Shown here: one piece after another, positions 1-55,134 of the stretch
Layout of the letters: each line of letters begins with the position of its first letter
Numbering within the stretch: position 1 is the first letter of the stretch
Virus record (IMG/VR): IMGVR_UViG_3300037249_000698
Span: 1-64,000 of that record
Origin: a virus
Lineage: Duplodnaviria; Caudoviricetes
DNA: 64,000 nt
Strand: one strand, 5' to 3'
Notes under the pieces: model-generated
What the model saw: only the letters and a program-made list of their open reading frames with translations
Database searches by the model: none
Told to the model about the DNA's origin: nothing
Made by a program: the position numbers and the translations under genes

Positions 1-85
1 TAGCAACTCCTCTAACTGTATTCTGAAAACGGTTAAACCTAAATGATAACCGTTCTTAAAATCAGGAGATGCAAATCGTAGTGGA

Positions 86-292
86 TTATCCTGCATCTTT
101 TATTACCACCTCAAATGCTTTATAATTATTTACATTTCTTATTTGCTTAAAATCTACCACGCAGTTTCCGTACTTACGCATCATCCAAAAAGCAACAAAT
201 TTAACTGGCATTGAAAAACTATATTGTTTGCTTTCGGTGTAAACCACGATATAACAATCGTAATATTTGTTTATAAATTCCCAAAACGTCAT
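86..292 (-). CDS. hypothetical protein
   Basis: ORF coupled to upstream gene, operon orientation. Confidence 0.6.
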   Translation of the reverse strand: MTFWEFINKYYDCYIVVYTESKQYSFSMPVKFVAFWMMRKYGNCVVDFKQIRNVNNYKAFEVVIKDAG

Positions 293-1723: not shown

Positions 1724-1749
1724 AAAAAAGGGTATGGCGAACCATACCC
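1724..1749 (-). terminator. intrinsic terminator
   Basis: GGGTATGG-cgaa-CCATACCC with A6 on the left. Confidence 0.85.
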
Positions 1750-1776: not shown

Positions 1777-2211
1777 TTAATCTAATACACTGGCTTTAAA
1801 CTCTAATTTAGGTGCAGACTCCTTAACCTCTAATGTCTTATCAACAATCTTCTTTTCATCATCGGTAAGCATGTCGTATGCTTTCTTTGATAAAGTGTGA
1901 GAGACTTTAAACAGTTCTCCTACATTTACAAAGTTTTCATCAAGTTCACGAGCGACTTCATCGAATGTGCTTTCTACGACCTTGGTTGTATAAGACTTTG
2001 TGAAAATCAGTTCGCCACCATCCACTTTAGCCTTGTTCTTACCAACGGTGCTTTCAGCAAAGTTCTTTTCTACGAGTTCTTTACGTAAAGCCATTTCCTG
2101 TGCTTTGATGTATTCTAACAGTTCTGCGGTCTGTCTCCACGCTGTTAAAGTATCGCCTGACTTAATCTTTTCTGAAATTTCTTCTTTCGCTAATTCTACT
2201 AAAGTACACAT
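1777..2211 (-). CDS. conserved phage hypothetical protein
   Basis: start reassigned to ATG 2211 behind AAAGGAAG. Confidence 0.75.
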   Translation of the reverse strand: MCTLVELAKEEISEKIKSGDTLTAWRQTAELLEYIKAQEMALRKELVEKNFAESTVGKNKAKVDGGELIFTKSYTTKVVESTFDEVARELDENFVNVGELFKVSHTLSKKAYDMLTDDEKKIVDKTLEVKESAPKLEFKASVLD

Positions 2212-2314
2212 AATTTTACTTCCTTTGTTTGTGTTAAAACCTTTATTTGTGACTGCTCTCACCTCAACATTTACCACCTAACATCAAGGCGAGAGACTTA
2301 TTCTTTAATATCCT

Positions 2315-2692: not shown

Positions 2693-2733
2693 AATGTTTT
2701 TCTCCTGTATCAACTGAATATGTGTTCATTATA

Positions 2734-3129
2734 TCAAGTCGCTTTTAGTCTGTCAACTAGCGTTCTCAACTTTTTTATACACAAATTAAATTTTGTGATT
2801 ATACTCAAATGTTTTTGTAAATCAAATCTCTCAACTCGTGCTTTTTTATGAACCTTTATGATACGTGAACATCGTTCTATATCCTCTGAATTTCCTATAT
2901 CTATAAGACCTATTACTTTATGAGGATATACTATCAATCCGTAGAATGTTTTAACATCTCTGTAATGCAGAGCTATGTTTAACGCCTCGGCTTGTGTTTT
3001 TCCAACTTCTAAAAACTTTTGTACGTACTTAGGACTTAGACCATACGCACAGCAGGCGTTTTGAAAGCTGTCAAATTTTTCTAGTCTATATACAACTGGT
3101 ACATTATGATTTACATGGGGCATAATCAT
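2734..3129 (-). CDS. hypothetical protein, possible HTH-like DNA-binding
   Basis: FDSFQNACCAYGL segment resembles repeats in 30440-31168. Confidence 0.55.
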   Translation of the reverse strand: MIMPHVNHNVPVVYRLEKFDSFQNACCAYGLSPKYVQKFLEVGKTQAEALNIALHYRDVKTFYGLIVYPHKVIGLIDIGNSEDIERCSRIIKVHKKARVERFDLQKHLSIITKFNLCIKKLRTLVDRLKAT

Positions 3130-13894: not shown

Positions 13895-13924
13895 AAAAAA
13901 AATGCCCACTCAAAAGAGTGGGCA
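13895..13924 (-). terminator. terminator of tRNA/ncRNA transcript
   Basis: TGCCCACTC-aaaa-GAGTGGGCA with A8. Confidence 0.9.
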
Positions 13925-14135
13925 AAATGGAGTATAACACATGATTAACGAATTTGGAAAGCACACCTAGCACTATACCAACAGGAAAGCAATTAATAAA
14001 CACAATGCCGATGTGCTTTCTAAATTCTAGGTGAGATACAGGTAGCTAAGGAGAAAACAATGAAAGAAAAAACTACCTGTATCTCCTGCCTATTTTATTT
14101 TACTTTGCATAGGCGGGCAAAGTAGGAGTATATAT
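13925..14135 (-). ncRNA. candidate multi-hairpin sRNA with anti-SD/anti-AUG loops
   Basis: 16-bp and 13-bp stems; loops/linkers complementary to RBS+ATG. Confidence 0.55.
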
Positions 14136-14258
14136 TTAAAAATACCAATCATCTTCGGGTATCTTTTCGTTTTCTTTAATTCTATCGTATATGCTCTTAT
14201 AATAACACACTCCACATATAATTGCAAGAACTATTAAAGAAATAATTGCGATACCCAT
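14136..14258 (-). CDS. small membrane protein (40 aa, not in ORF track)
   Basis: GGAGAA RBS; MGIAIISLIVLAIICGVCYYKSIYDRIKENEKIPEDDWYF. Confidence 0.65.
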   Translation of the reverse strand: MGIAIISLIVLAIICGVCYYKSIYDRIKENEKIPEDDWYF

Positions 14259-14907: not shown

Positions 14908-14982
14908 TATCACAGCGATAGGAATCGAGCCAACGACCTATGGTATCTTCAGTCCATCGCTCTACCATTGAGCTACATCATC
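14908..14982 (-). pseudogene. degenerate tRNA-Phe(GAA)
   Basis: intact D-arm TAGCTCAATGGTAGAGC and CTGAAGA loop; broken T-arm/acceptor, no CCA. Confidence 0.6.
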
Positions 14983-31520: not shown

Positions 31521-31581
31521 AGTGACTTATATCACAAATTTCAAACTTACTATTGACAAATAAAAACTGTTATGCAATAAT
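31521..31581 (+). promoter_or_regulatory. early promoter with CRP-like site
   Basis: AGTGA-N6-TCACA; TTGACA-N17-AATAAT with TG extension. Confidence 0.75.
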
Positions 31582-40664: not shown

Positions 40665-40920
40665 GTTATTCCAGAAAAAACATAAAATTTAATACAGGGA
40701 CTATAAATTATTTGAAACAGGATAATTAAAACCAAAAACGGATTAAAAGTTATATTATAAAAATTACCATAAAGGGATTATAAATTATTCAGATAAATAT
40801 AAATAATTGTGTAAACGGATTAAATTTTAAAGGGATTTTAAAAATTAAAAGTCAAGTAAATTAAATCAAAAATTAGATAAAAGTCACAAAATATTTTGAA
40901 TGATAAACGGATTATTAAAT

Positions 40921-40983
40921 TGTGCATAAAGTCACAAAATAAATTAAAAAGTAATTGCAATTTGAATTTAATTTAATTATAAT
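40921..40983 (+). promoter_or_regulatory. promoter with CRP-like site at -61.5
   Basis: TGTGC-N6-TCACA; TTGCAA-N17-TATAAT. Confidence 0.75.
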
Positions 40984-42233: not shown

Positions 42234-42296
42234 TGTGATATAAGTCAAAAAATTTATTAAATAATGATTGTAAAGTGAATTATATTTTGATACAAT
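42234..42296 (+). promoter_or_regulatory. promoter with CRP-like site at -61.5
   Basis: TGTGA-N6-TCAAA; TTGTAA-N17-TACAAT with TG extension. Confidence 0.7.
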
Positions 42297-42748: not shown

Positions 42749-43096
42749 ATGACATTATATGAAGAACTTTACAAAATCGTGAAAGAAAAAAAGGTTAAAG
42801 TCTGGAATTTTGCGGGTAATACTTATGAGTTCACCCATTTTACAGGGAATCATCATTATCAGGTTAGACTTGCTTATGTGGGTAAATATTACGATGAGTA
42901 TTTGACGACAACTCATATTGTAAAATTATCTAGACATAATTTTGATTACATTATCAAAAAACTAATGTATCAAATTATCAGAAACACTTTAAGAAATTCC
43001 GCACAAGTTCGCTTTAATGTTTATTACGCTAAACAAAAACTTGTGCAAGTTCACAGCTCTACAGGTGATTTTTACGGATGGAAAAAACCTGAGTAA
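42749..43096 (+). CDS. basic hypothetical protein
   Basis: TAAGGAG RBS. Confidence 0.75.
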   Translation: MTLYEELYKIVKEKKVKVWNFAGNTYEFTHFTGNHHYQVRLAYVGKYYDEYLTTTHIVKLSRHNFDYIIKKLMYQIIRNTLRNSAQVRFNVYYAKQKLVQVHSSTGDFYGWKKPE

Positions 43097-43151
43097 AGTC
43101 ACAAAATAATCTTTTCATAGCTTGCAAGTAATATGCGAGCTATGATAGAAT
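43088..43151 (+). promoter_or_regulatory. promoter with CRP-like site and inverted repeat
   Basis: CCTGA-N6-TCACA; TTGCAA-N18-TAGAAT; TCATAGCTTGCA/TGCGAGCTATGA. Confidence 0.7.
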
Positions 43152-47340: not shown

Positions 47341-47379
47341 AAATACTTGCAAAACATTTTTAATTTGTTATAATAGCTA

Positions 47380-47461
47380 TATCAAAGTTCATATTTTGAT
47401 ACTCCTTATGTGAAGTTGTTTGTGTTATACCCACGGTCGCTTTTTGGCTGTGGGTTTTTTT
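47380..47461 (+). ncRNA. candidate sRNA with anti-SD/anti-AUG and GU-rich seed
   Basis: own promoter 47347-47374, G-U-containing terminator, no ORF. Confidence 0.65.
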
Positions 47462-49439: not shown

Positions 49440-49546
49440 TCTTGGTGACCTTTTGATTTTCTTTGCAATAGTTTTTATAGGAATTTTAATTATAATAAAT
49501 TTAATCGACAGCATGAAATAGTCGATAGTCACAAATAAGGTGAGAA

Positions 49547-51196
49547 ATGGCTTTTAAGTTACCCGATAATATCAACGTTGTTTGGAAACCGTTAGAGGGT
49601 CGAGTTATTAACGGTAAGTATTACATGAGTTCGCAGGAACTTGTGCTGTCCTGTAATTGTGATACTATTTTTATGTCAAGTTCTCGTGCAAGCGGTAAGA
49701 CAGAAGTCAGTCTTATCAAATTCTGCCTCCCTATCGGCATGGGTTACGGTTCATATTATCGAGGTGTTTACATTGATATGCACTACAAAGACTTGAACGA
49801 TGTTATTGCACGTTCAAAACGTCTTTTCCCGATGATTTATGGTAACAAAGCACGATATTACAGTTCAAGAGGTGATGAACATTGGACTTGGGATACAGGC
49901 GAGGAATTGTGGTTTAGACAAGGTGCAACCGATGAGGACTACAATTCTTTCCATGGTCAGGAATTTGCCGTTATATTGTATAACGAATTGTCTAAAAACC
50001 CTACTCCTGACTTTTTCGATAAAATGCGTACAACAAACCGTACATCATTTAATCCTTATGACCATCCGTATTACATTGACGCTAAATATTATAAAGAATA
50101 CGGCATCGAAAGGCGTGTAAAGCCTGAACATCCGTATGCGGTAAAGAAATTTTTACCACCACTTAGACCAAAAATAATTATAACAACCAACCCATCCGGT
50201 GCAGGCAAGCAGTGGGTCAAAGAGCGTTTTGTTGACCCCGCCCCTGCTGGCAAGATTGTGAAAACAGAGATTAAAGCCTATAATCCGCAAACTAAAAAAG
50301 ATGAGATTATGGTCAAAACACAAGTTCACATATTCAGTTCGTATAAAGAAAATACACATCTTTCACCTGAATATGTACTCGAACTTGAAAGCATTAAAGA
50401 CCCTGAACTTAGAAAGGCGTGGTTATACGGTGATTGGAACGCTAGTTACGGTGATGGTATGTTTAATGATATATTCAGAACATCAATTCACGTTGTTCCG
50501 CAATTTAAAATTCCTGATACTTGGAATATTTATACAGGATTCGACTGGGGTTGGTCAAAACCGTTTGCAACTTTGTGGCTTGCTGTTTCCGATGGCTCTG
50601 ATATAGTTCTGCCTAGCGGTGCTAAACGCCGTACAGTTCGTGGGGATATATTCATAATTAACGAATACTACGGTTGTGTTAAAGGCAAGGCTAATACAGG
50701 TGTTTGTATGCTTGCTAGAGATGTCGGTAGAGAAATATTAGAACGTGAAATCGGTCTTGGTTATAAGCCTAGAATTGTTGCTAGTATCGCTGATAATGCT
50801 ATTTTTAGCAAGGAAGATGGTCACTGTATTGCAGATGAAATGAGAAAACCTGTTAATATAGCAGGTAAAATTATGGGTGGTAAAACTTGGATTGGTGCTG
50901 ATAAACGAGCAGGTTCGAGAGCCGTTGGTTGGAACTTAATAAAGCAACGCCTTAAAAATGCTGTTCCTGAAACTGACGTTGTAACAGGCGTTACACTACC
51001 TAGAGAAGAAAAAGGCTTGTTTGTTTGCGATAATTGTAGAGATTTTTTAAGAACTTTCCCTAATCTTCCTAGAGATGAAAAGAAAGATGGCGATATTGAT
51101 ACAAGTACCGAGGATCACTTAGCGGATGCTTTACGTTATGCGGTATCATACATCGACCACGGTGAACGTTCTGTATCTACTTACGGCATGAATTAA
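49547..51196 (+). CDS. terminase large subunit
   Basis: RASGKT, TTNPSG, AWLYGDW, GFDWG, EDHLADALRY. Confidence 0.93.
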   Translation: MAFKLPDNINVVWKPLEGRVINGKYYMSSQELVLSCNCDTIFMSSSRASGKTEVSLIKFCLPIGMGYGSYYRGVYIDMHYKDLNDVIARSKRLFPMIYGNKARYYSSRGDEHWTWDTGEELWFRQGATDEDYNSFHGQEFAVILYNELSKNPTPDFFDKMRTTNRTSFNPYDHPYYIDAKYYKEYGIERRVKPEHPYAVKKFLPPLRPKIIITTNPSGAGKQWVKERFVDPAPAGKIVKTEIKAYNPQTKKDEIMVKTQVHIFSSYKENTHLSPEYVLELESIKDPELRKAWLYGDWNASYGDGMFNDIFRTSIHVVPQFKIPDTWNIYTGFDWGWSKPFATLWLAVSDGSDIVLPSGAKRRTVRGDIFIINEYYGCVKGKANTGVCMLARDVGREILEREIGLGYKPRIVASIADNAIFSKEDGHCIADEMRKPVNIAGKIMGGKTWIGADKRAGSRAVGWNLIKQRLKNAVPETDVVTGVTLPREEKGLFVCDNCRDFLRTFPNLPRDEKKDGDIDTSTEDHLADALRYAVSYIDHGERSVSTYGMN

Positions 51197-51237: not shown

Positions 51238-52839
51238 ATGTTAGATTCTGTAAATTATGAATATCTTAATATGCTTCCTTATTGGGAAAAACTTGACGAT
51301 TTGTACCGTGGGGAAGATTTTGTTAAAAAGGCAGGTGTTAAGTACCTGCCACCGTCAGCAGGTATGATTATTGACGATATGCGGTCAATAAATTCACTTG
51401 GCTTTAAAATCTATATGTCGTATATAGGCAGAGCTGATTACATCAATCATGTTAAAAATGCCGTGGATAGATATGTAGGGTTGTGCCATCAAAGTTCACC
51501 GACTATTCAACTGCCGAAAGAGATGGAATATTTGAGAGATAAGGCTACTAAAGACGGTCAATCCCTCGAAAGTCTTTTGCGTATGATTAACACCGAACAG
51601 GTTAAACTCGGTCGTTGCGGTCTGTTTGTCGATATTAGCACTGACGTTGCTAGAGATAATAAACCTTATCTCGCTTTTTATGATGCGTTCAGTATTACTA
51701 ATTGGAATAATAGCGATAATCCGTTCGGTTATACCGACCTTAATATGCTAGTTCTAAAAGAGACTGAACACGTTTTAAAAGACTTTTCTTGGACTGACGA
51801 AATTCGCTACAGAGTTTGTCTTTTAGGTGACGGACACGTTGTTAGAGGTAATGATTACTACCGTCAAGGTGTGTTTAAAGATACTGCATTTAACGACAAC
51901 CTGATGTTTACCCCTAGTTATCTCGGTACAAAATTACACGAGATACCGTTCGTATTTATCAATGCTTGTGATACCGTTACTCGCCCTGATTTTCCACCGC
52001 TTGATGATTTGGCTAATTGCTCGCTTAGTGCGTACAGATTGTCAGCCGACTATAAACAGGCATTACACATGCAAGGACAGGACACGCTCGTTATCAAGGG
52101 TAATCTGCTGAACGTTACTGAAAACGCTCCTACCGACAACAGCAAAAATGCACAAGAACAAGGTATCAGAACAGGTGCAGGTGCGGTATTAAACGTTGCT
52201 TGTGATGGAAATGCTGAATTTATCGGCGTTAGCGGTGACGGTATTCCCGAAATGAGACAGGCTCTTGAAAACACCTATAATCGTTGTGAGGTTAAGAGTG
52301 GTAACTTGCTGACTAATGGTGCTACATTTGAAAGCGGTGAGTCATTAAAGACTCGTCTTACTGCTCAAACAGCCAACCTTAATCAGATTGCTCTTACAGG
52401 TGCGTTTGGTCTGCAAAAAGCATTACGCTTTATCGCTCGTTGGATTGGTGCTAACGAAGATGAAGTTGTTGTTCAGCCTAATCTTGAATTTAGTGATTAC
52501 CGTATCACAGGTGATGATTTGGTTAAGGTTACAACTGCTATCAAGCTCGGTTTCCCTATGTCATTACAATCCGCATACGAATATGCACAGTCTAAGGGTT
52601 ACACTAAAGAACCGTTTGAGACACAGATTGATATGATTAAAAAGGAAAAAGAAAGCGGTTTGAGAGATTTGCTTATGCCACCTGAACAACAGTTTGCGGA
52701 AAGCAATAGCGGTCTAAATCCGCTGAACGGCAATAATGCAGGAGGTAGCGTTTCGGCTACAAGTGTGCAAAAGAAAACTACATCGGCTAACAAAGACTTA
52801 ACCGATGTGTCTAAAATTACAAACAATTCAAATTCGTGA
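51238..52839 (+). CDS. portal protein (DUF4055-like)
   Basis: GVKYLP, GRCGLFVD, IPFVF, ESGESL; synteny. Confidence 0.88.
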   Translation: MLDSVNYEYLNMLPYWEKLDDLYRGEDFVKKAGVKYLPPSAGMIIDDMRSINSLGFKIYMSYIGRADYINHVKNAVDRYVGLCHQSSPTIQLPKEMEYLRDKATKDGQSLESLLRMINTEQVKLGRCGLFVDISTDVARDNKPYLAFYDAFSITNWNNSDNPFGYTDLNMLVLKETEHVLKDFSWTDEIRYRVCLLGDGHVVRGNDYYRQGVFKDTAFNDNLMFTPSYLGTKLHEIPFVFINACDTVTRPDFPPLDDLANCSLSAYRLSADYKQALHMQGQDTLVIKGNLLNVTENAPTDNSKNAQEQGIRTGAGAVLNVACDGNAEFIGVSGDGIPEMRQALENTYNRCEVKSGNLLTNGATFESGESLKTRLTAQTANLNQIALTGAFGLQKALRFIARWIGANEDEVVVQPNLEFSDYRITGDDLVKVTTAIKLGFPMSLQSAYEYAQSKGYTKEPFETQIDMIKKEKESGLRDLLMPPEQQFAESNSGLNPLNGNNAGGSVSATSVQKKTTSANKDLTDVSKITNNSNS

Positions 52840-52876
52840 TAAAATTAAAGAGTTCACAAATTAGAGGTACATAATT

Positions 52877-53731
52877 ATGGCATTTAAAGATCCTAACACA
52901 AAAACTTTTCAACCTATCGTAGATTCTCTCGATGGTGTTGATGAAAACATTAAGTCGCTTTATGCAGAGACTACTGACGGTAAGTATCAAATTCGAGCTG
53001 ATATAGCATTTCAGAGCGACTTTGAACGTGTGCGTGATACTCTCACAAAAGAACGTACAAGTAATAAAGAGTTAAACGCAAAACTGAAAGAATTACAGTC
53101 TAAACTCGATGCTTACGGCGGTATCGACCCGACAGGCGTAAAGGGTATGCAGACTGAACTCGCTAACCTTAAATCTACCGAAACTGATTTGAGCAAGATT
53201 AAGTCTAGTAAGGCAGATTTAGAGTTGCAGTTTAAAAACTTAAAAGAACAGTTTGATGAACTCTCTAAAATCAATCAGCGTTACGAAAAAGAACGTACTG
53301 AACAGCGTCTAAAAGACAGTGCTAGAAAGGCGTTTGGTGATAACGGCATTTTAGACAGTGCTATGGAAGATGGTCTGTTATGGGCAACACAGGTACTTGA
53401 AAGTGCCGAAGATGGCTCTGTAAGAGTTAAAGACGGTACTAAATATCCTGCCGGGGTAAGCGTTGACAGTTGGGTTCAGCTTTTCAAGAAAGACAAGCCA
53501 CATCTTTTCGGTGGTTCTGTCGGTGGCGGTGCAGGCGGTAGCGTAAGCAATTCAATAGAAATTGAAAACTGGACTAACACAGGTCTTGATGGTGGCATCA
53601 ACATTACTAAGTTAGCACAGGCAATTAAGGAAGATCCAAAGGCTGTAGTTGCCGTTGCAAAGGCTAAAGGACTTGAAAAGGTGTTAAGAGAACGTTACGG
53701 TTATCTCTATAATCAAATCGCTGATAAGTAA
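52877..53731 (+). CDS. capsid scaffolding protein
   Basis: coiled coil, PHLF..GGGAGG. Confidence 0.8.
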   Translation: MAFKDPNTKTFQPIVDSLDGVDENIKSLYAETTDGKYQIRADIAFQSDFERVRDTLTKERTSNKELNAKLKELQSKLDAYGGIDPTGVKGMQTELANLKSTETDLSKIKSSKADLELQFKNLKEQFDELSKINQRYEKERTEQRLKDSARKAFGDNGILDSAMEDGLLWATQVLESAEDGSVRVKDGTKYPAGVSVDSWVQLFKKDKPHLFGGSVGGGAGGSVSNSIEIENWTNTGLDGGINITKLAQAIKEDPKAVVAVAKAKGLEKVLRERYGYLYNQIADK

Positions 53732-53778: not shown

Positions 53779-53808
53779 GTTTATACTATTTATCGTGTAT
53801 AATAAAAA

Positions 53809-53856
53809 TACTCCTTTATTTGTGACTTTTGGGGTTGAGAAATCAACCCCTTTTTT
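53809..53856 (+). ncRNA. candidate ~48-nt anti-SD sRNA
   Basis: TATAAT 53798, TACTCCTTT, terminator GGGGTTGA-gaaa-TCAACCCC-T6. Confidence 0.55.
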
Positions 53857-54016
53857 AACAAAAATACCGCTTTTTTCAGAAAATTTAAAAGTGTGATATT
53901 ATAGTATCTGTTACGAATACGTGATGTTGAGTAGCAATCTTCGGTGCGTGATGCTAAGAATGATTTAATAAAGTTATTTTTTGTTTTAATGTTATTTTTA
54001 TAGGAGATGGCTACTC

Positions 54017-55042
54017 ATGGCTACAACTCGTTTACAAGACCTTATCGTACCCGAAGTGTACGAGGGTTATCAAACCGATGAAATTACTCGTAAGTTAAAT
54101 CTTATTCAGAGTGGAACTGTTGCTCGTTCTGAAAAATTGGACTCTCTGCTTAACGGCGGTGGTGCTACCTTTAATTTCCCATTCTATAACAACCTTTCTG
54201 ATAGCGGTGAAACTATTGCTACCGATAATCCTGCTGACGTTATCGTTCCTGAAAAGGCAAGTGCTAGTAACTTAGTAGTTGCTCGTTGCGTTCGTACAGC
54301 ATCTTGGGAAGTAGCCGACATTGACGAAATGCTGACCGCAGACGATCCAATGGCATTTATCAGCTCTCGTACCTTAGATTTCCGTCTTGGTTGCTTGCAA
54401 AAGCAGTTCATGTCTGTTGTAAAGGGTATTTTCGCTAACAACGCCACTGCAAGCGATGATTATCATACTCAAAATGACCAACGTTGGGTTGTTTCAGGTA
54501 CTACCTATTCCGCAGGTGTTACCGATTTCAACGTAAATCATCTTATTGACGCAATCTCTCTCATGGGTGATGCACAAGATGGTTTCGGTATGATTATGGT
54601 TCACCCAACTGTATTTGCTAACATGCAGAAGCAGGATATTATCGACACTCGTATTCCTAGCGGTGCATCTGCTCCTGTTCGTTACTACAACGGCTATCAG
54701 ATTATTCTGAATCAGGATCTTCCTAATACTGGCGGTGTTTACTCAACCTACATCTTTGGTCGTGATCAGTTCAAGCTCGGTTTCGGTTCAGTTAAAGAAC
54801 CAATCGCCTTTGAAAAACATCAGGCACAGGGTAATGGTTACGGTGTTACTACTATGTATAACCGTTGGTGTAACGCTATTGCTCCAAAGGGTTACAGCTA
54901 TATTGGTAGTGGTTTCGCTGTGGGCGGTCCTGCAAACGATACTACTAACGGTGCTTTGTCTACCGCAAGTTCATGGCGTAGAGTATGCGGAGATAAGCGT
55001 TCAGTCAAGATGGTTGAACTCGTAACTCGTGAAACTGCATAA
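54017..55042 (+). CDS. major capsid protein
   Basis: MATTRLQDLIVPEV, FPFY, MVHP; synteny. Confidence 0.9.
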   Translation: MATTRLQDLIVPEVYEGYQTDEITRKLNLIQSGTVARSEKLDSLLNGGGATFNFPFYNNLSDSGETIATDNPADVIVPEKASASNLVVARCVRTASWEVADIDEMLTADDPMAFISSRTLDFRLGCLQKQFMSVVKGIFANNATASDDYHTQNDQRWVVSGTTYSAGVTDFNVNHLIDAISLMGDAQDGFGMIMVHPTVFANMQKQDIIDTRIPSGASAPVRYYNGYQIILNQDLPNTGGVYSTYIFGRDQFKLGFGSVKEPIAFEKHQAQGNGYGVTTMYNRWCNAIAPKGYSYIGSGFAVGGPANDTTNGALSTASSWRRVCGDKRSVKMVELVTRETA

Positions 55043-55107: not shown

Positions 55108-55134
55108 GAGAAGTCATAGATAAGAGAGGCTAAA

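Follow-up and report, generated by a model that had tools for sequence, protein, structure and literature searches.

GcvB of enterobacteria reportedly uses a G/U-rich seed against C/A-rich elements that lie in or upstream of ribosome sites. It is a host RNA of around 200 nt, is Hfq-dependent and has many targets; some of the targeted elements upstream of the Shine-Dalgarno (SD) sequence act as translational enhancers. In Bacillota, RsaE/RoxS, the loops of RNAIII and LhrC pair an exposed C-containing motif with a GGAG-type SD, and sRNAs of the RsaE/RoxS type present UCCC or C-rich motifs, often more than one, in the loops of hairpins. Lambda 6S RNA and StxS are short, abundant transcripts that start at a strong late promoter and end at a promoter-proximal terminator; in lambdoid phages Q overrides the terminator to express the late operon. 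Few experimental cases are known in which the genes of a lytic phage are controlled by the phage's own trans-acting sRNAs. The c4 antisense RNA of P1/P7 (Citron and Schuster 1990, reviewed in PMC12197685) is a short phage RNA of 77 nt, processed from the operon of its own target, which pairs around the ribosome-binding site (RBS) and blocks translation; its seeds sit in loops and it serves temperate-phage immunity. SviR, encoded by the PLE satellite of Vibrio cholerae, lowers translation of a putative structural protein of ICP1 (bioRxiv 10.1101/2022.04.08.487710), and lambda LPR1/PreS is an sRNA that affects host genes during lytic growth (bioRxiv 10.1101/2024.10.31.621285); both have experimental support.

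The locus described here is a candidate small transcription unit at 53.8 kb in the genome of an uncultured tailed phage (Caudoviricetes). By analogy it would work like c4, GcvB and the C-rich anti-SD sRNAs, though it belongs to none of these groups. As with c4, a short phage-encoded RNA would act against a phage RBS, exposed complementary stretches giving the specificity. Unlike c4, the mini-gene has its own promoter, a 5′-terminal seed and several distant candidate targets, and the phage is apparently lytic. The U/G-rich seed faces C/A-rich leader elements, as in GcvB, but there is no sequence relation to GcvB and the seed adds an anti-SD part, CUCC. In contrast to the RsaE/RoxS type there is a single CUCC, which sits at the extreme 5′ end and not in a loop; the U/G-rich extension that follows it would supply the specificity of the seed. 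Like SviR and LPR1, the candidate unit would be a mobile-element sRNA altering mRNA translation in lytic growth. SviR differs in being satellite-encoded and directed against a phage, LPR1 in acting on host genes; both belong to other hosts, have other sequences and are longer RNAs. In Rfam no family, GcvB and the RsaE/RoxS type included, matched the 53.8-kb unit, and none matched the DUF7173 leader that it would target, a second unit at 47.4 kb or the capsid leader. The C4 covariance model gave no match; only tRNAs reached Rfam gathering scores in the window, and nothing relevant was found at E up to 1 in the related contigs L001 and L009.

Genome context and the mini-gene at 53.8 kb

The window is the whole stretch of DNA that was analysed, 64,000 nt in length, and forms the first 64 kb of a genome of 95,133 bp with 34.6% G+C. 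An exact direct repeat of 127 bp at the two ends (window 1-127 and genome 95007-95133) is most likely the overlap of a circular assembly. Genes on the minus strand extend from 86 to 31404 and include NrdG, DUF7173, primase, helicase and polymerase exonuclease. Small early genes follow on the plus strand from 31617 to about 44000, where TTGACA-type promoters are numerous, and structural genes occupy 44186 to 81242. The phage looks lytic. No close sequenced phage was found: megablast returned nothing and the best capsid identity is at most 40%. We note that a contig from IMG/VR (3300031760_000552, L001/L011) is 100% identical to the window in capsid and scaffold, 99.8% in portal and 98.8% in transglycosylase but just 81% in TerL, which indicates mosaicism. 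A fifth tRNA, missed by ARAGORN, is placed by Rfam at 14910-14982 on the minus strand (37.7 bits). The 3′ end of the tRNA cluster (13900-14140, minus strand) has several CUCC-containing stretches beside hairpins, upstream of a strong terminator.

The features of the structural region referred to below are as follows.

49547-51196, TerL
51238-52839, portal
52877-53731, scaffold
53796-53803, plus strand, -10 box of the mini-gene, TGTATAAT; the same octamer is found at the late promoters 47554 and 61594
53810-53856, plus strand, candidate sRNA of about 47 nt, comprising a 16-nt seed (53810-53825), a terminator (53831-53850) and a U tract
54017-55042, capsid

The mini-gene sits between the scaffold terminator and the conserved capsid promoter. 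From its -10 box, six bases lead to a 16-nt block; four U then separate this block from a GC hairpin of 8 bp, after which there is a run of six T. The same layout is present in two further lineages (L002 and L008), at 76% and 80% capsid identity. In all three the 16-nt block is identical and begins at the predicted +1, 6-8 nt past the -10 box; none of the 8 bp of the terminator stem is shared, and the spacer and flanks differ as well, so that the seed is conserved amid turnover of its surroundings. Each lineage has its own -10 box and its own 8-bp GC stem with T6. An invariant block amid diverged flanks is the pattern that would be expected of selection on a short RNA with a 5′-terminal seed, and the unit looks like a real, selected small transcription unit. 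The T tract is confined to the plus side and thus fixes the orientation. The candidate RNA folds with a z score of about -4 and no predicted fold pairs the first 9-13 nt of the seed; where a weak helix covers the 3′ part of the seed, it does so with bases past the U tract. No conserved ORF was found in the mini-gene on either strand across the three lineages. A small minus-strand ORF using the SD-like complement of the seed was considered and rejected, as neither start codon nor frame is conserved in the three lineages. The arrangement resembles that of lambda 6S/StxS in that a late promoter is followed by a terminator within tens of bases, just upstream of late structural genes. It differs from the lambda late promoter in that the terminated leader is not the sole route, a separate capsid promoter lying downstream. 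If real, the unit would be unusually small and simple, having a seed at its first base and then a terminator alone.

The mini-gene is absent from relatives at 70% capsid identity, and the record G002 (77 kb, 88% complete, of the L006 type) contains no sequence, on either strand, that matches the seed with 3 or fewer mismatches. A metagenome scan with the capsid profile added no further mini-gene lineage, and pattern scans of IMG/VR with a 14-mer and a 16-mer found the promoter-terminator layout in the three known lineages only. The other matches from these scans are mostly chance, or antisense copies of ribosome sites in unrelated phages; about half of 30 unrelated 16-mer matches (L151-L180) are antisense copies of RBS-plus-ATG regions. 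The seed thus mirrors a strong ribosome-site context that is common in AT-rich phages. Part of the seed match thus comes cheaply, because the complement of the seed is common RBS context in unrelated AT-rich phages. The three known seed-bearing lineages all belong to one clade, and the co-occurrence of mini-gene and target motif is therefore confounded by descent.

Two observations concern the neighbouring capsid gene. Its promoter, downstream of the mini-gene, is conserved even in relatives that have no mini-gene. Its leader contains a block of about 47 nt (53920-53966) with two GTGATG repeats that is nearly invariant down to 70% capsid identity and is also kept in relatives without the mini-gene; the predicted consensus structure is weak.

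The DUF7173 leader and its match to the seed

The opposite end of the window holds the leader to which the seed was matched, with the following features.

1777-2211, minus strand, DUF7173 gene, 144 aa (PF23791 at E 5e-20; phrog_2480)
1730-1749, minus strand, intrinsic terminator closing the DUF7173 unit, an 8-bp stem then a T run
2728-2756, minus strand, promoter of the two-gene unit, sigma-70-type consensus (TTGACA-17-TATAAT, 12 of 12 positions, TG upstream)
2256-2295, minus strand, intercistronic leader hairpin of 16 bp, G-U rich, assigned by fold energy; the same in L009 and L139
2240-2254, minus strand, tandem unit 1, perfectly complementary to the 53.8-kb seed over 15 nt, -43 to -29 relative to the start codon
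2219-2236, minus strand, tandem unit 2, containing the 12-nt match (2225-2236) and the real SD (2219-2227)

DUF7173 is the second gene of a two-gene unit, the first being gene 2692-2315, and homologues beginning MCTL place its start codon at 2211. Its message is early/middle, from a gene of the replication module. On the plus strand, 2240-2254 and 53813-53827 share one 15-mer, and 2225-2236 and 47416-47427 share one 12-mer, so that the minus-strand leader has complementarity to plus-strand RNAs from both 53.8 and 47.4 kb. A preliminary description of this DNA had reported both matches, with coordinates and sequences that are all correct, and a stem that pairs best on the minus strand, which also exists as described and is specific to that strand: its minimum free energy is -25.6 kcal/mol (z -2.3) on the minus strand vs -12.5 kcal/mol (z -0.4) on the plus strand. 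The two adjacent sites were likewise positioned correctly there; what had been overlooked is that both represent the same tandem unit, about 18 nt long and made up of ACAYAAAYAAAGG and a few additional U. The units are C/A-rich pseudo-ribosome sites, each ending in an SD-like AAAGG, and the second copy supplies the real SD. Both are unpaired in the predicted fold of the leader.

The number of units varies from 2 to 4 among near-identical phages, with four in L009 (99% identical) and two in L139 (98%). The window, L009 and L139 agree fully in the 15-mer of unit 1 and in the hairpin, and the 12-mer of unit 2 has two changes in L139 and one in L009. A search for DUF7173 homologues gave two protein clusters only, whose contigs yielded one near-identical leader and one short unrelated leader. 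At 58-59% identity (L138, and L150 from the 77-kb record G002), the homologues are preceded by short leaders of ordinary type in which both the hairpin and the units are missing; in G002 the spacer before DUF7173 is 26 nt. The leader with hairpin and units is thus known from near-identical phages only. Two other readings of this stretch were discarded. An sRNA paralogue antisense to the leader is disfavoured by the weak plus-strand fold (z -0.4), the absence of a U tract and the G-U pairs, which favour the minus strand. Iterons or an origin at 2.2 kb do not agree with the cumulative GC skew, which turns at about 31 kb and about 81 kb instead, nor with the position of the tandem units in a transcribed leader, each with a terminal SD-like AAAGG.

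The preliminary description had proposed a genome-wide repeat comparison as a gauge of chance. Length alone proved uninformative in this respect, the 95-kb genome containing about 60 maximal exact repeats of at least 15 nt, 185 of at least 14 nt and about 2800 12-mer pairs; the 15-mer does stand out when it is set against the conserved seed. For this test, 138 leaders of 85 nt were matched to the seed, which had been defined independently by its conservation. The longest complementary run is 15 nt in the DUF7173 leader and 12 nt in the TerL leader, and the antisense control does not exceed 9. When the anti-SD heptamer was kept and the other 10 bases of the 17-nt seed were permuted, the run in the DUF7173 leader had a P of about 0.003, and jointly with the TerL run about 0.0005. 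The 15-nt match, the longest among the 138 leaders, is therefore far beyond chance. Duplex energies show an excess of seed complements in leaders: five ribosome-binding regions pair with the seed at -17 kcal/mol or better vs a mean of 0.7 in 60 controls that retain the anti-SD part of the seed, and none of the 60 reached the observed values. Cofolding of the seed RNA with the DUF7173 leader gives a net energy of about -19 kcal/mol. Because the partner looks selected and its seed matches the leader beyond chance, an interaction between the candidate sRNA and the DUF7173 leader is plausible. The seed is invariant except at position 17; as to seed-target covariation in relatives, the leader comes from near-identical phages only and target positions shift.

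Further candidate targets and the 47.4-kb unit

The seed complement, or a close variant of it, is also found immediately before the SD of TerL, gene 55135, gene 85535 and scaffold. The sites within the window are given here with their duplex energies.

49527-49540, plus strand, TerL leader site, 12-nt perfect seed complement (13 bp with one G-U), -21.9 kcal/mol
55111-55129, plus strand, gene 55135 leader site, imperfect, -20.5 kcal/mol
52851-52867, plus strand, scaffold leader site, weaker match, -16.2 kcal/mol

The TerL site directly follows a 5′ hairpin and extends into the SD. Where the variant sites of 55135 and 85535 depart from perfect complementarity, the changes are C to U and A to G, both of which keep G-U pairs. 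A hairpin stands 1-4 nt away from the motif in the leaders of DUF7173 and TerL, and also in the mini-gene itself, where the motif is reversed. Intergenic and leader copies of CAYAAAYAA are all sense to the local gene, except two that lie inside promoter-terminator units; the other intergenic copies of AGTCACAAA are sense in six of six cases. The scaffold-leader motif is present in all three lineages with the mini-gene and in none of four without it. A strong TerL site is confined to the window and L011, a transglycosylase-leader site was found only in L010, and the L008 type has no strong target within 10 kb. Strong sites thus fall at different genes in the three lineages, which counts against a fixed regulon. 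Because the motif also occurs in the TerL, scaffold and 55135 leaders, which the preliminary description had missed, the DUF7173 leader is one of several candidate targets.

The partner of the 12-nt match is a second unit:

47347-47461, plus strand, 47.4-kb unit with TTGCAA-16-TGnTATAAT promoter, 5′ hairpin, anti-SD core, a variable stretch containing the 12-mer, and terminator

This unit may well be an sRNA. The 12-mer lies in its variable part, where the sequence of L011 is already different; the units at the same position in L011, L012 and L015 have only the anti-SD core and the terminator in common with it. We note that units with promoter, anti-SD and terminator precede the promoter of the transglycosylase gene in four lineages (the others being L011:2785-2900, L012:2885-2970 and L015:2870-2985), and that L010 and L013 have no unit at this position.

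In its fullest form the preliminary description envisaged that two late sRNAs, from 53.8 and 47.4 kb, converge on the DUF7173 leader, or that the leader sponges them, with its 3′UTR as a module of a cascade. The DUF7173 leader does have the longest run of the 138 leaders against both units, the 47.4-kb RNA can, in cofolding, pair through its 12-mer and through anti-SD/SD contacts together, and a unit copy number of 2 to 4 is what a titrating element might show. The 12-nt match, however, is at chance level (P about 0.07, the antisense control likewise reaching 12), and the leader ranks only 29th of 138 in duplex energy with the 47.4-kb unit. Its site is mutated in L139 and L009, the corresponding region of the 47.4-kb unit has not been kept in L011, and the L012 and L015 units are unrelated apart from the anti-SD part. 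Nor are the two leader matches independent, because both partners share a UUGUG/CACAA-type motif. We treat the 12-nt match as incidental similarity of related U/G-rich and C/A-rich low-complexity motifs. Convergence of a second sRNA on the leader is thus not borne out and the sponge and cascade ideas find no support, which makes the full model highly improbable. With it falls what had made the finding look special, namely two sRNAs matching a single leader.

Proposed action of the RNA and alternative readings

The observations are probably best explained by one late anti-ribosome-site sRNA with several phage targets, and not by a pair of sRNAs, by sponging or by a cascade. Transcription from a late-type promoter located between scaffold and capsid would give an RNA of about 47 nt (53810-53856), whose seed is antisense to a strong ribosome-binding region plus its C/A-rich upstream flank. 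Late in infection this RNA would pair with the open stretch between the hairpin and the start codon of DUF7173, perfectly at unit 1 and with one internal mismatch at unit 2, which covers the SD. Pairing would lower the translation or stability of the early/middle DUF7173 message, and the same effect would be expected on late messages with the motif just before the SD, namely those of TerL, 55135 and scaffold. At -43 to -29 the perfect site is beyond the region that a ribosome usually covers, and translation may therefore effectively be blocked at unit 2, or through interference with unit 1 acting as an enhancer or standby site, as in targets of GcvB. We infer that the RNA is made, that the pairing occurs and that its effect is repression; taken as a whole, this explanation is our tentative preference, at a probability a little short of even. 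An extended version, in which the 47-nt RNA runs a regulon of terminase, scaffold, a head-region gene and DUF7173 through C/A-rich elements that lie between a 5′ hairpin and the SD, seems quite unlikely. There the DUF7173 leader would be both a target and a titrator of variable copy number, its 2-4 tandem copies setting the amount of free RNA that reaches the late targets. The candidate targets are easy to read, and the natural variation in the number of sites in one target leader would make the system convenient for reporter tests.

The main rival takes the shared motif as a cis element of mRNAs, such as a C/A-rich translational enhancer, a standby site or a site for an RNA-binding protein, to which the 53.8-kb RNA is merely antisense, as to any generic ribosome site, with no regulatory consequence. 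On this reading the tandem units would only boost or tune DUF7173 translation, and the 53.8-kb RNA may be real. Several features suit such an element: the units are pseudo-ribosome sites repeated 2-4 times, the motif directly precedes the SD of several well-expressed late genes, the complement of the 16-mer is frequent RBS context in unrelated phages, and the target positions are not conserved across lineages. We nevertheless regard this rival as somewhat unlikely; it leaves unexplained both the invariant antisense copy that three lineages retain as the 5′ end of a promoter-terminator unit and the absence of the motif from the scaffold and DUF7173 leaders of lineages without the unit. Chance combined with low complexity would make the 53.8-kb unit a promoter-terminator insulator or abortive unit with no function in trans, the 15-mer being one of many short repeats. 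The genome does hold its 60 or so exact repeats of at least 15 nt, and its intergenic DNA is AT-rich and full of ribosome-site-like strings. The permutation result (P about 0.003, or 0.0005 jointly with TerL) and a 16-nt block that is invariant between fully diverged flanks make this reading improbable.

A regulator of the phage or host that binds GTCACAAA-type sequences as DNA would offer a different account. The copies at 2246, 49528 and 53819, which resemble a CRP half-site, would be operators, and RNA complementarity a by-product of two oppositely oriented sites. It is notable in this respect that AGTCACAAA occurs in seven copies, six of them intergenic, vs about 1.2 expected from base composition. 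In the early region the 16-mer with GTCACAAAA (40927-40942 and 43094-43109) lies exactly 12 nt upstream of a TTGCAA -35 box, with a third early copy (40880-40893) 48 nt farther upstream, and CRP-like inverted repeats are present at 31523 and 42234. The early-region copies at 40927 and 43094 are themselves likely to be regulator sites, and one protein may bind both the early and the leader-type copies. The early copies are nevertheless a distinct subclass, in which an additional A is present and AAGG is missing. A promoter 12 nt downstream is seen for none of the three leader-type copies, and the leader-type motif lacks palindromic symmetry. An operator would serve no obvious purpose at positions +1 to +17 of a transcript that ends 30 nt later, the sense orientation shared by all leader copies is not required of a DNA site, and variants that preserve G-U pairs fit RNA pairing better. 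Operators thus appear an improbable explanation of the leader-type copies, to about the same degree as chance.

Two further observations were made in passing. The CRP-site-like sequences are of the 14-nt form TGTGA-N6-TCA, one in each orientation; that at 31523-31536 is placed at the divergent early/replication switch, and that at 42234-42247 before gene 42332. Outside the window, the minus strand of genome 86690-86860 carries another unit of promoter, body and terminator, the body of which is antisense to an SD-plus-ATG region.
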